64,000 bases of DNA from Clostridia bacterium (GCA_017481235.1 JAFUPL010000006.1:2591-66590), one strand, 5' to 3'; positions 16,674 to 20,079 are shown, numbered from the stretch's first letter. The notes: generated by a model not told the origin, from the letters alone. Numbers and translations are program-made.

Positions 16674-18205
16674 TGAAAACAGCAGTTATTTATGCAAGAT
16701 ATTCAAGTGATAGTCAAACAGAACAAAGTATTGAAGGACAATTAAGAGTTTGTCAGCAATTTGCAAAGAACAATGATATTTTAATAGTTGATACTTATAT
16801 TGACCGAGCAATGACAGGAACAAACGACTTGCGACCAGATTTTCAAAAAATGATTAAAGACAGCAATAAAAAACAATGGGATTATGTAATTGTTTATAAA
16901 TTAGACAGGTTTAGCAGAAACAAATACGAAACAACAATCCACAAACACACATTAAGCAATAATGGTGTTAAGGTTTTGTCAGCGATGGAAAACATACCAG
17001 ATACGCCCGAAGGCATAATTTTAGAAAGCTTGCTTGAAGGTATGAATCAATATTATTCAGCAGAACTTTCACAAAAAGTCCTTCGTGGTTTAAAGGAAAG
17101 CTATTTAAAAGGCAACTTTACAAGTGGCGTTCAATTATTTGGTTACAAAGTTGTTGATAAGAAAAATGTTATAGATGAAAACGAAGCCGAAATTGTAAAA
17201 GAAATTTTTTCTAAATATGCACAGGGTTTTACTGCTGTTTCAATAGCACAAGAATTTAAAAAGCGTGGCATAAGAACAAAAAAGGGAAAATATGTTGACT
17301 CTGTAATGATTTATAAATTTATTCAAAACACAAAATATATTGGTAAAGTAAAACACGGAGATAAAATTTACACAAATATATATCCACCAATAATAGACGA
17401 GTCAACTTGGCAAAAAGTCCAATCAATAAGAAACGCAAACAAACACGCACCGGGAAGAAAAAAAGAAATATTTGACTTTTTACTATCTGGTAAATTAGTA
17501 TGTGGCACTTGTAAAAGAACAATGATTGGTGAAAGTGGAACTTGCAGAAATGGTGATAAACATTACTATTATAATTGTTTAAGCAGAAGAAGAAAAAAGG
17601 CAGAGTGTGATTTTCACTCTGTCAACAAACAATGGCTTGAAGATTTAGTTTTGCAAATAACTTGGGAATTAATTTGCAAAGAAAACAATTTAGACGAAAT
17701 AGTAAACGAAATTTACAAGAAGCATCAACTTGTTAATAAGCAAGACTCTATAATAAAAACACTTGAAGTTAAAAGAAATGATGCTTTAAAAGCTTCTAAC
17801 AATTTAATATCTGCTATTGAACAAGGAATAATAACCGAGCAAACAAAGATAAGATTAAAAGAATTAGAAGCACAAATATCACAATATGATTTTGATATTG
17901 AACAGGAAAAGCAAAGGTCATATACTTATTTAACCCCAAGCTTAATAAAAGATTATTTAAAATCTGTTATTTGTGGTGATATAGAAGATTTAACAATTAG
18001 AAAACAAATCATCAAAACATTTATAAGAGAAATAATTTTAACAAATGATAACTTAATAATAGTATATAATTTTATTGATAACAATTTTACAAAAAAGCAA
18101 ATACCAGATAATATAGAAGAAGTTATTGAACAGTCAGAAATGGCTGTTAAAAATAGATTTAACGGTTCAAACAAAAAGGATAGCACTCCGCCAAGCGTAA
18201 CCTAA
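16673..18205 (+). CDS. Large serine recombinase/integrase
   Basis: 510 aa. Resolvase-type N-terminus is VIYARYSSDSQ...YKLDRFSRN, followed by a recombinase domain, a zinc ribbon (CGTCKR...YYYNC) and a coiled-coil. Confidence 0.9.
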   Translation: MKTAVIYARYSSDSQTEQSIEGQLRVCQQFAKNNDILIVDTYIDRAMTGTNDLRPDFQKMIKDSNKKQWDYVIVYKLDRFSRNKYETTIHKHTLSNNGVKVLSAMENIPDTPEGIILESLLEGMNQYYSAELSQKVLRGLKESYLKGNFTSGVQLFGYKVVDKKNVIDENEAEIVKEIFSKYAQGFTAVSIAQEFKKRGIRTKKGKYVDSVMIYKFIQNTKYIGKVKHGDKIYTNIYPPIIDESTWQKVQSIRNANKHAPGRKKEIFDFLLSGKLVCGTCKRTMIGESGTCRNGDKHYYYNCLSRRRKKAECDFHSVNKQWLEDLVLQITWELICKENNLDEIVNEIYKKHQLVNKQDSIIKTLEVKRNDALKASNNLISAIEQGIITEQTKIRLKELEAQISQYDFDIEQEKQRSYTYLTPSLIKDYLKSVICGDIEDLTIRKQIIKTFIREIILTNDNLIIVYNFIDNNFTKKQIPDNIEEVIEQSEMAVKNRFNGSNKKDSTPPSVT

Positions 18206-18242
18206 TCCGAACACTTTCTGTTTTGATTAGGTTTATTTTTTT
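18199..18242 (+). terminator. Module Y copy 1: intrinsic terminator overlapping the recombinase stop
   Basis: AACCTAATC (18199-18207) pairs with GATTAGGTT (18225-18233), followed by a T-run. Confidence 0.7.
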
Positions 18243-18269
18243 GTTTTAGGGTGGGATTCGACCCGTAAA

Positions 18270-18374
18270 GGGTTCGGTCTGTCGACCCGGACCGCAACAG
18301 AGTTGCTCCCGCTTTGTGCTAAAAACTTGCCACTGGCAACTTTTTTTAACGCAGTCGCCCCTAACTCTCCGCCA
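18270..18374 (+). repeat. Module X copy 1 (105 bp, about 55% GC), candidate structured RNA or att arm
   Basis: Near-identical to 19925-20029. It ends in the TCCGCCA core. Confidence 0.85.
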
Positions 18375-18383
18375 TAGAAAATC

Positions 18384-18408
18384 ACTTTGCTTAATGCAAA
18401 GTTTTTTT
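18384..18408 (+). terminator. Strong intrinsic terminator following X copy 1
   Basis: ACTTTGC-TTAAT-GCAAAGT followed by a run of seven T. Confidence 0.75.
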
Positions 18409-18546
18409 AATGATAAATGACTAATTAATAATGAAGAATTGAGGTTTTGTTTATGATTTTCTAATTCTTCATTTTTCATTCTTCACTCTTCATCAACCAT
18501 CATTCACCTCAACGGTTTTTGAAACTGACAAATAGGCTCACCAAAA

Positions 18547-18623
18547 TGTCTAACAAAAAAATCACACTTTTTTCGTGTCTAATGAAATTTGTTAGAAAAA
18601 TATTAGACAAAACATTAGACAAA
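18547..18623. promoter_or_regulatory. Operator-like array of TTAGACAA / TGTCTAA motifs
   Basis: TGTCTAA at 18547 and 18576. ATTAGACAAA at 18602 and 18614. All lie just upstream of the promoter. Confidence 0.5.
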
Positions 18624-18637
18624 TTTTAGAATTAGTA

Positions 18638-18666
18638 TTGAAAAAGTTTTTGAGATATGCTATAAT
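18638..18666 (+). promoter_or_regulatory. Near-consensus sigma-70-type promoter
   Basis: TTGAAA, then a 17-nt spacer ending in TGC, then TATAAT (extended -10). It lies 24 nt before the AAGGAG SD of the 288-aa gene. Confidence 0.7.
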
Positions 18667-18690
18667 CCTTGTACTTTTAAGGAGTTGAAT

Positions 18691-19557
18691 ATGAGTTATT
18701 ATAATAGTGAAGAAGAATTTTTATCTGCATACACAGCACGTAAATTGATATTAGGGGGAAGACCTGTTGTTTGCAAAGAAGAATTGGAAGCAGCACGTGA
18801 TGAATTTTTACAAAGTGTATACTGCTCTAGTAATTTAATAGAAAAGTTAAATAAATTAAATTTTAATGATTTAGAAAAAATAAGCGAATTATTCCAACAA
18901 AAAGCTAGTATTAATAGAAGTTGGCTGAAACCCTGCTTTGTTTATAAGGATGAACAACTTTACCCCACTTATAACTTTTTTGATTTTACACAAACAACTT
19001 ATGGAGAATTTGTGGTTTTCTTAAGCGATAAACGTTATAATATTATTCCTAGAGAAAAATGTTCAAGATTTATGATTCGTAAGCAATATGAAGAAAATGC
19101 TTCGAAAGTTGCTACTTATTTAACAAAATACTTTGCCAATGAATACATAAAGAAAGAAATTAAAAATAGAAGATGGCCAAAGCATTTGAGCGATGTATCT
19201 TATTTATTAGATAAGGATTTAGGAAGAACTCTTGAACTTGAAGGAACACAGAACTATTTTAGAAAGTTTAGAAATAGTGCATTTATGGATTTAGGGAACA
19301 TACTTACTGATAGTAATGGAAATTTAAGAATTTCGAATGAAAGAAGTGGAACGTTGGCTTATAACAATTTAAAAAGAATGCTTACTGCATTCCCAGAACT
19401 TGATACGTTGAGCAGTGGGTATTATGAAAAGGGTAATAGCAAATTTAATATTACAATTAAAGATGGTATCATTAAATGCAATGAGACAACACTTGTGGAT
19501 GAAGATCCATATGAAGAGTTTAGCGATTCTTATTCAAATGAAGAAAAAAGCCTTTAA
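18691..19557 (+). CDS. Orphan 288-aa protein
   Basis: ATG 7 nt after the AAGGAG SD (the track start is an upstream TTG). I recognise no family motif. Confidence 0.6.
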   Translation: MSYYNSEEEFLSAYTARKLILGGRPVVCKEELEAARDEFLQSVYCSSNLIEKLNKLNFNDLEKISELFQQKASINRSWLKPCFVYKDEQLYPTYNFFDFTQTTYGEFVVFLSDKRYNIIPREKCSRFMIRKQYEENASKVATYLTKYFANEYIKKEIKNRRWPKHLSDVSYLLDKDLGRTLELEGTQNYFRKFRNSAFMDLGNILTDSNGNLRISNERSGTLAYNNLKRMLTAFPELDTLSSGYYEKGNSKFNITIKDGIIKCNETTLVDEDPYEEFSDSYSNEEKSL

Positions 19558-19569
19558 TATTATTTACAA

Positions 19570-19602
19570 ACACTCAAACAAGTTAAAGTTTGGGTGTTTT
19601 TT
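19570..19602 (+). terminator. Intrinsic terminator
   Basis: ACACTCAAAC pairs with GTTTGGGTGT (one G-U pair), followed by a T-run. Confidence 0.65.
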
Positions 19603-19924
19603 GATATAATTTTAGGGAGCAGGATAAGAAGCGGACTCAAAATTCAAATTTTAACTCTAAAACCCCCTATAAAATAGGCAGTTTTGTATTTAAAATAAAG
19701 GGATTACAAGGGATTTGATAATATAAATTATAAGAAGTGATTTTATAAATCACAATTGATTGTCATCAATTCTTGATAACGCAAAGTTCTTATAATTTTG
19801 AATTACGTCAGATTATGTTAAATGTGCATAAATGCCCGCTTATATAATCTTCCTAAATTATAAAATAATCAAAGGTAAAAATTAATCGGTAAAACTTGAA
19901 AACCGTTGAAGTGCGAGCTTCCTG

Positions 19925-20029
19925 GGGTTCGGTCTGTCGACCCGGACCGCAACAAGTTGCTCCCGCTTTGTGCTAAAAACTTGCCAAAGGGCAACTTTTC
20001 TTAACGCAGTCGCCCCTAACTTTCCGCCA
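19925..20029 (+). repeat. Module X copy 2
   Basis: Same 105 bp as 18270-18374 with a handful of differences. It is contiguous with Y copy 2. Confidence 0.85.
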
Positions 20030-20034
20030 AGCGT

Positions 20035-20079
20035 AACCTAATCCGAACACTTTCTGTTTTGATTGGGTTTATTTTTTTT
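20035..20079 (+). terminator. Module Y copy 2: intrinsic terminator
   Basis: AACCTAATC pairs with GATTGGGTT. The A-to-G change keeps pairing as G-U only in a plus-strand RNA. A T-run follows. Confidence 0.7.

Follow-up and report, generated by a model that had tools for sequence, protein, structure and literature searches.

In a stretch of 64,000 nt from a Clostridia bacterium (GCA_017481235.1 JAFUPL010000006.1:2591-66590; in its full length referred to as the window), three junctions, J1, J2 and J3, share the heptamer TCCGCCA, and J1 lies at the 3' end of a gene for a large serine recombinase (LSR). An initial annotation had described them as a site-specific recombination scar in an unexpected order. 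Comparison with related genomes suggests instead that J1 is the attR site of a 24.5-kb integrative element, element A, which was integrated by the adjacent LSR, and that TCCGCCA represents the 3' terminus of tRNA-Ser(UGA), i.e., the 3' strand of the acceptor stem, G73 and the encoded CCA. J2 and J3 would have been left by earlier exchanges. We put the probability of this overall explanation, an LSR element at the tRNA-Ser end atop older exchanges at the same core, at about 0.8. The scar in the wrong order thus turns into an ordinary, well-supported LSR element in a tRNA-Ser 3' end on an older mosaic of tRNA ends.

Element A at the 3' end of tRNA-Ser(UGA)

The cores are located at positions 18187-18193 (J1), 18368-18374 (J2) and 20023-20029 (J3), with flanks exactly as annotated initially. 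The core of J1 and the terminator module to its right, Y, are repeated directly at J3 (56 nt, 18187-18242 vs 20023-20078, 98% identity). Likewise, a module to the left of J2, X, is repeated together with the core at the left side of J3 (105 nt, 18270-18374 vs 19925-20029, about 94% identity with two 1-nt indels). The distance between Y and X is exactly 27 nt (18243-18269). These findings confirm the three junctions and the two repeat arms, and the statement that J3 consists of the left arm of J2 and the right arm of J1 formally holds for the flanks and the repeat alignment. Probes for Y and X (28 and 30 nt) each matched twice in the window, compared with none expected from 100 shuffles. Significance is limited to these extended arms, as the bare heptamer is not rare (18 copies in the window vs 1.9 expected). 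Note that 14 of these 18 copies belong to the minus strand and read TGGCGGA on the plus strand, which carries most long open reading frames (ORFs); the majority of the 14 fall between 30 and 64 kb. This excess is probably due to codon or dipeptide bias and unrelated to the att core.

In principle, the repeats could have misled the assembler, such that the order J1-J2-J3 exists in no cell. Two contigs indeed end at the repeats, one of them (L001) inside Y and the other (L003) beginning exactly at the J1 core, CTCCGCCA. However, such breaks would follow from the 56-nt repeat or from a population in which occupied and empty sites are mixed, and L003 covers the region from the J1 core to beyond J3. 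A 155-kb contig that stems from another sample and was assembled independently (L002/L008) has an identical order, and relatives exhibit the same Y-27 nt-X layout. Furthermore, the two X copies differ by 6%, and collapse or swapping by the assembler is therefore excluded. An assembly chimera is extremely improbable.

The contig L008 also provided the partner of J1. An intact tRNA-Ser(UGA) gene is present 24.5 kb upstream of J1, outside the window, and its core is joined to the P' arm of the element (TTAGTAAATAAAACGAACCGTGATAAAATTCATAGGTTCG..., with the P' arm reading TTAGTAAATAAAACGAACCGT...). This attL site and J1 have only the short core in common. On one contig, they are separated by 24,538 bp, which is the total length of element A, and the left end of the element is located about 6.35 kb to the left of the window. 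An uninterrupted attB is available in a relative, L007, whose left flank and tRNA, 488 nt together, show 99.6% identity before the sequence continues straight into core-Y-27 nt-X. When attB, attL, attR and attP were compared, only CTCCGCCA proved common to all four. Here, attP is a reconstruction and not an observed circle (P-core-P' junction ...GGATAGCACTCCGCCATTAGTAAATAAAAC..., excised circle ...GGATAGCACTCCGCCATTAGTAAATAAAACGAACCGT...). It comprises about 53 bp, in which two 7-bp arms form a perfect inverted repeat, ACGGTTC-39 nt-GAACCGT, whose centre is the second base of TCCGCCA. The comparison of attL, attR and the empty site supports the initial view that the core is a probable site of site-specific recombination.

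The nature of this site emerged when a 23-mer from X was used to scan 185,579 species representatives, each species being represented by one genome; four loci were obtained. Three of these, L004, L005 and L007 (Candidatus Onthoplasma and 'Clostridia' metagenome-assembled genomes), contain a gene for tRNA-Ser(UGA) according to ARAGORN, as does L008, with the 3' end ...CTCTCCGCCA; the gene terminus in L004, L005 and L007 was noted as ...GGGGTTCGAATCCCTAACTCTCCGCCA. Directly 3' of the intact gene, these three loci carry a Y-type terminator, a spacer of about 27 nt, X, the core again and a second terminator. The core is thus where a bona fide tRNA gene has its 3' terminus, and Y-27 nt-X-core is the usual sequence downstream of tRNA-Ser in relatives without the element. 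This explains the order J1-Y-27 nt-X-J2 that had seemed odd. The initial annotation had overlooked the tRNA, of which TCCGCCA is the 3' end and X a 3' fragment. In the window itself ARAGORN called only a tRNA-Arg at 52058 and no tRNA-Ser gene.

We propose that the LSR of element A recombined its attP with an attB consisting of the T arm of tRNA-Ser, the core and the terminator Y. The products would be attL, with the intact tRNA-Ser and P', and attR, i.e., J1, and the tail of the integrase would have changed from the 28 aa of the attP form to SVT. The sequence to the right of J1, Y-27 nt-X-core-terminator, predates the arrival of element A, because relatives without the element have tRNA-Ser-core-Y-27 nt-X-core.

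The initial annotation implied a different course, with all three junctions arising through the adjacent recombinase from an attP reading ...GCAC-TCCGCCA-TAGAAAATCAC (circular junction ...CCGCCATAGAAAATCAC) and an attB of the type X-core-Y. The formal composition of J3 agrees with this, and the predicted empty site does exist in L006 as an insert-free X-core-Y, albeit beside a different tRNA fragment. However, J1 and J2 are not attR and attL of one event, since what pairs with J1 is tRNA-Ser-core-TTAGTAAAT..., which is carried by the same contig. Nor do the left arm of J1 and the right arm of J2 make an attP: only P' completes the perfect inverted repeat, and the right arm of J2 lacks the dyad partner GAACCGT. 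The J1-J2 interval is not inserted DNA either, as Y-27 nt-X-core occurs in element-free genomes. Finally, the tail reconstructed with P' resembles those of several database homologues, while the fourth product of the initial annotation, ending in TAG, gives no such resemblance. We consider this model very improbable.

The recombinase and its C-terminal tail

The LSR contains the three domains PF00239, PF07508 and PF13408 (E-values from 3e-27 to 9e-13). In the integrated state, the protein ends with ...KKDSTPP-SVT, and the last three codons, the stop codon and the terminator Y are host DNA. The proposal that the end of the gene and its terminator stem from partner DNA is therefore borne out. 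The missing product of the exchange, by contrast, had been predicted as ...ACT CCG CCA TAG. In the reconstructed attP, the reading frame instead continues across the core as ...CCG CCA TTA GTA AAT... and the resulting protein of 535 aa, ...STPP-LVNKTNRDKIHRFVLFYMNDCFGVNIKL, is not 3 residues shorter but 25 residues longer than the 510-aa form, with a tail of 28 aa compared with SVT after integration. The exact 535-aa protein had no match in a collection of 15 billion proteins.

Homologues exhibit the same discontinuity. The motif PP or AP is present near residue 507 in 106 of 120 LSR homologues, and all similarity is lost thereafter. Among integrases with at least 97% identity, 17 different tails follow ...STPP (two clusters at 90% identity or more), and in L016, L017, L036 and L038 the integrase abuts different terminator-like right flanks directly after CTCCGCCA. 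Near-identical integrases with different tails and flanks past the core place the crossover in or right after the core. The element occurs widely and tolerates many different right-hand arms. X is absent downstream of the integrase homologues in the four loci just mentioned and is therefore not part of the LSR element.

The ORF of this LSR family thus appears to run through attP, so that free (or tandem) and integrated forms would differ in their C-terminal tails. This would be a family-wide feature. In mycobacteriophage BPs and its relatives, attP is located inside the repressor gene and immunity depends on integration (PMC4557955). The likeness lies in an attP within the 3' end of a phage or element gene and in different C-termini of integrated and free forms (PMC4557955), and by analogy the tail swap may serve as a regulatory switch in the LSR family. 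In the case presented here, however, the affected gene is that of the recombinase itself, a serine enzyme, and part of the conserved tail just encodes a terminator hairpin. In the attP form this is the P' terminator hairpin, and the P' terminator also accounts for part of a related long tail (..N.TN...FVLFF..E.FG..) in at least 9 of the 120 homologues.

Well-known prophages and integrative elements that rely on LSRs are those of the phiC31, Bxb1, A118 and TP901-1 type. Element A resembles them in its three-domain recombinase, the short core, an attP of about 50 bp with an imperfect dyad, simple attL and attR sites without a requirement for long homology and an empty attB in a relative. It differs in three respects: the target is not a protein-coding gene but the extreme 3' end of a tRNA gene (with the encoded CCA); the ORF of the integrase passes through attP and has its C-terminal tail replaced upon integration; and the B' arm is very tolerant, with 17 right flanks for one enzyme. 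A defined pair of attP and attB together with tolerance of many right flanks is of practical interest for the construction of integrase tools.

Proposed older exchanges at J2 and J3 and the 82-nt scaffold

The tRNA-Ser terminus is a recombination hot spot and a repeatedly used landing site for mobile DNA. Alignments identify X as a 3' fragment of tRNA-Ser, composed of GGGGTTCG, a scaffold of 82 nt and CCCTAACTCTCCGCCA. In the copy of the J2 type, which is found at the same position in L004, L005 and L007, GGGTTCG alone represents the left-hand part of tRNA-Ser, and the preceding spacer is like the variable-arm region of a different tRNA (L006). The copy at J3 is preceded by more of the tRNA, with an identity block that starts in the anticodon loop; there is no tyrosine integrase between positions 12000 and 28000. 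X at J3 is 98% identical to X of L005 and L007, while X at J2 is closest to that of L004 (96%). The two copies match alleles of different lineages and have thus not arisen by recent local duplication.

Relatives combine the same building blocks differently. In L004, the interval ends with an arm other than X that is joined to the second Y copy, Y2, at a variant core, TCCCGCCA. L028, which holds the closest relative (97%) of ORF288, the gene between J2 and J3 in the window, has a non-tRNA sequence, P_Q, followed by the tRNA-Ser half without scaffold, joined at the core to a terminator, t2, and this ORF. The last 30 nt or so of P_Q (TAATCAAAGGTAAAAATTAATCGGTAAAA) precede the tRNA-Ser half in L028 just as they do in the window. 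In L006, a different tRNA fragment is followed by core-Y-spacer-X-core-Y with nothing inserted. Six kinds of left arms (tRNA, integrase, X, P_Q plus tRNA half with scaffold, the same without scaffold and the L004 arm) and five kinds of right arms (Y, the P' arm of element A, the terminators t1 and t2, and the flank of another host) were sampled at one core, and nine combinations were seen. Such a distribution would be expected from arm shuffling by conservative recombination at one core. While the composite array of several junctions proposed in the initial annotation was corroborated, its long arms (105 and 56 bp) are not the outcome of the recombinase but duplicated tRNA-end and terminator modules older than this integration.

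We suggest that J2 and J3 were left by earlier exchanges at the same core, in which a 1.65-kb segment, consisting of t1, a promoter, ORF288, a conserved block R, P_Q and the tRNA half, would have joined an X-core-Y site, generating X-core-t1 (J2) and X'-core-Y2 (J3). As the segment does not encode a recombinase, either an enzyme would have acted in trans or homology would have done the work.

The arrangement is reminiscent of tRNA-linked islands that grow by accretion of integrative and conjugative elements (ICEs) and cis-mobilizable elements (CIMEs), such as Streptococcus thermophilus ICESt1/ICESt3. Common features are the hot spot at a tRNA 3' end, serial att-type repeats, integrase-less segments bounded by att sites that could be moved in trans and a displaced tRNA 3' half starting from the anticodon loop (J3). 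In contrast to these islands, the sole recombinase here is a serine and not a tyrosine enzyme, and the conserved 82-nt module splits the T loop in the repeated tRNA ends. To our knowledge, an interruption of this kind has not been described. The initial annotation had drawn a parallel to staphylococcal cassette chromosome (SCC) islands, in which Ccr acts at the 3' end of rlmH/orfX. What stands of it is that a serine recombinase targets the 3' end of a conserved gene and that segments are stacked between repeated cores; what does not is the target, which is tRNA-Ser with no rlmH nearby, and the enzyme, a single LSR instead of a Ccr pair. Moreover, the stacked segment has only 1.65 kb, one ORF and no recombinase, and J1 and J2 derive from different events.

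A second explanation for J2 and J3 does without site-specific recombination: tandem duplication would have been followed by RecA-type recombination or gene conversion between paralogous tRNA-end copies and between strains. The long identities, the lack of an integrase between J2 and J3, and conserved blocks that flank variable ORFs all agree with it. So does the presence or absence of the scaffold in otherwise identical flanks (J3 of the window vs L028, and the two copies in L006), which is what gene conversion from a true tRNA gives. On the other hand, differing arms always meet exactly at the core, and the arm that is joined to Y2 at the variant core of L004 is non-homologous. The arms in X|t1, X|t2 and P_Q with the tRNA half|t2 share only the core, which homology leaves unexplained. 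Homologous recombination or gene conversion is a serious alternative for part of the history of the locus, and one that explains scaffold presence and absence well; as the explanation of J2 and J3 we consider it clearly the less probable one.

Several points weigh against our own explanation, an LSR element on top of older core exchanges. The interval between J2 and J3 encodes no recombinase, and X-core sites are only putative substrates of such an enzyme. Identities of 105 and 56 nt far exceed the needs of a serine recombinase and also allow homologous (Campbell-type) recombination or gene conversion. X at J3 has its nearer match in the allele of other lineages and not at J2, such that exchange between lineages must be assumed. 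The order of the older events cannot be reconstructed, with L005 lacking Y2 and P_Q and the tRNA half being permuted in L028. All sequences compared are short-read metagenome assemblies. The predicted RNA fold of the scaffold is only modestly better than that of shuffled sequences (z-scores of -2.3 and -1.2), and the role that we assign to the scaffold is a guess.

In the alignment to tRNA-Ser, the scaffold takes the place of the final 3 nt of the T loop in X. Onthoplasma-like genomes and L006 have the first 40 nt of the scaffold in common without a single difference, although the surrounding tRNA parts differ. A central hairpin with conserved pairing but altered sequence (CTTGCC...GGCAAC vs TAATCC...GGATTA) has an A run on one side and a T run on the other, as in a bidirectional terminator, and the 5' part of the scaffold forms an inverted repeat, GGTTCGG...CCGGACC, with bases of the T arm. 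The scaffold occurs in three flank contexts, namely with the tRNA-Ser(UGA) half, with a chimeric flank and, in a distant genome, with a fragment of a different tRNA. In addition, there are two pairs in which the scaffold is present or absent within identical flanks.

X is rare. Two copies are present in the 64 kb of the window, and it was found in four of the 185,579 species representatives and on one Joint Genome Institute (JGI) contig. Searches in phage, plasmid and IMG/VR sets gave nothing or chance matches in high-GC coding DNA, a metagenome scan returned only the contig already found, and a covariance model of X detected no new copy in 283 kb of fetched loci. A dispersed repeat or miniature inverted-repeat transposable element was rejected in view of the few copies and because 3 nt are replaced without duplication. 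For the scaffold, an insertion of the IS200/IS605 type or by a tyrosine recombinase was discarded likewise, as its junctions show no duplication and 3 nt are lost. X was also considered as a 3' coding remnant of an integrase, but its 39 open codons lack a start and similarity to an integrase C-terminus, and indels break the frame.

Could X be a gene in its own right? It would then specify a small RNA that mimics the T stem and the 3' acceptor strand of the neighbouring tRNA, with the scaffold as its body and the junctions incidental to its duplication. The scaffold is more conserved than its surroundings, with 40 nt that are 100% identical between distant genomes and a central hairpin that covaries, the T stem is retained in all copies, and every X-core is followed after 4-8 nt by a terminator, as in a tRNA gene. 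However, there is no promoter between Y and X, the internal terminator-like hairpin would end the RNA before the tRNA-like 3' end, folding z-scores are weak, and with only six known copies the covariation is nearly uninformative. Rfam gave no match at the gathering score, nor at E<=10 in 18150-20150, and ARAGORN made no call on X; on these grounds, X was rejected as a transfer-messenger RNA, a tRNA or another known RNA, riboswitches, ribozymes and group II introns included. An RNA gene of its own is unlikely.

For the scaffold, we lean towards a role at the DNA level in an arm of an attachment site. As a last step of the proposed history, it would constitute the element-side part of such an arm, with inverted repeats for protein binding and a bidirectional terminator for insulation. 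That it is a new functional module, placed precisely in the T loop of tRNA 3'-end copies beside integration hot spots, is a tentative idea that we consider improbable, although the three flank contexts and the two pairs with and without the scaffold would fit it. Such a module may be a mini mobile insertion specific for T loops, a conserved portable arm from an unrecognised family of elements that target tRNA ends, with tRNA-like flanks that are re-templated on every host tRNA, or an RNA that mimics tRNA ends. If functional, an 82-nt T-loop module in unrelated tRNA contexts would be a new component in the use of tRNA genes by such elements. It is the only part of the locus that could turn out to be new, the rest being an LSR element at a tRNA 3' end on a tRNA-linked mosaic.

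Annotated features and neighbouring genes

The coordinates of all features are collected in Table 1.

Table 1 Features of element A, the junctions and the interval between J2 and J3, with positions in the window
Feature	Position	Strand	Basis and remarks
Element A, right-hand 18.2 kb	1..18186	.	Pfam matches and leftward walk on the same contig (L008)
LSR gene, 510 aa	16673..18205	+	Resolvase, Recombinase and Zn_ribbon_recom domains; ORF crosses core
J1, attR core of element A, CTCCGCCA, equal to the 3'-terminal 8 nt of tRNA-Ser(UGA) with the encoded CCA	18186..18193	+	Four-site comparison; ARAGORN
Y1, host-side (B') arm, intrinsic terminator	18194..18242	+	Stem AACCTAATC...GATTAGGTT, then T run
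Spacer, 27 nt, with short hairpin GTGGGATTCGACCCGT	18243..18269	+	Alignments; resembles variable-arm region of the tRNA in L006
X copy 1 (J2), pseudo tRNA-Ser 3' end	18270..18374	+	Alignment to true tRNA-Ser; covariance-model match; GGGTTCG T-stem/loop 18270-18276, 82-nt scaffold 18277-18358, CCCTAACTCTCCGCCA 18359-18374
Conserved non-coding block right of X	18375..18684	+	75-88% identity over ~480 nt to L004, L005, L007; terminator(-like hairpin) right of J2 18384-18402, inverted repeat 18407-18496, TTAGACA-type repeats, strong promoter-like site 18638-18666
ORF288, 288 aa, variable cargo slot	18691..19557	+	Relatives carry different genes here
Block R, terminator and conserved ~100-nt stretch, TTTTAGGGAGCAGGATAAGAAGCGGACTCAAAAT...	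19568..19685	+	After first variable ORF in all relatives: L028 57-153 and 2182-2259 (twice), L004 2709-2786, L005 5957-6072, L007 7793-7870
P_Q, non-tRNA sequence abutting tRNA-Ser 3' half	19686..19892	+	Sequence comparison with L028
X copy 2 (J3), tRNA-Ser(UGA) 3' half	19893..20029	+	Anticodon loop onward (19893-19931) 37/37 identical to real gene; 82-nt scaffold 19932-20013, CCCTAACTTTCCGCCA 20014-20029
Y2, second tRNA-Ser-type terminator	20030..20078	+	Direct repeat of Y; directly upstream of DUF378 gene
DUF378 gene, conserved chromosomal right flank	20132..20356	+	Pfam; also right of variable region in L004, L005

According to Pfam, the cargo of element A within the window comprises a rolling-circle Rep, a SNF2 helicase, a HEPN protein, an N6 methylase and a BspA-type leucine-rich repeat protein; a restriction enzyme and PcfJ are encoded outside. 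The Rep is of the REP_ORF2-G2P type and the restriction enzyme of the ResIII/RE_endonuc type. No virion genes were recognised and no conjugation machinery besides PcfJ was found in the regions concerned (window 1-16200, L008 12282-19252). Judged by its gene content, element A does not resemble a prophage but an integrative and possibly mobilisable element, the cargo of which is of the restriction-modification and defence-like type.

In the interval between J2 and J3, the promoter block and block R appear to frame a cassette-like slot, the gene in which differs between genomes: L004 and L005 have ORFs unrelated to ORF288 in this place. Searches of Pfam, PHROG and PADLOC returned no match for ORF288, and an assignment of the variable ORFs as defence genes was rejected on the lack of matches in the same three collections. 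ORF288 is not a marker of an X-linked mobile unit either, as homologues occur without fixed linkage, beside tRNA-Ser(GGA) without X in L023 and between the genes for EF-Ts and RRF, with no tRNA, in L030. In L023, the homologue lies directly downstream of tRNA-Ser(GGA), and a 23-nt copy of the 5' end of this tRNA is present about 190 bp upstream of the gene (5543-5565, 5736-5824), which suggests a further insertion event at a serine tRNA.

Upstream of ORF288, positions 18500-18666 contain at least five TTAGACA/TGTCTAA motifs in both orientations, which immediately precede a near-consensus promoter (TTGAAA-17-TATAAT, extended by TG). This block, which resembles an operator array, is also conserved in L004, L005, L007 and L028. 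To the right of J3, the gene next to that for DUF378 (20678-21454) encodes a helix-turn-helix protein with weak PADLOC matches to RmrA (best E-value 4e-10), which are confined to the N-terminal helix-turn-helix region.

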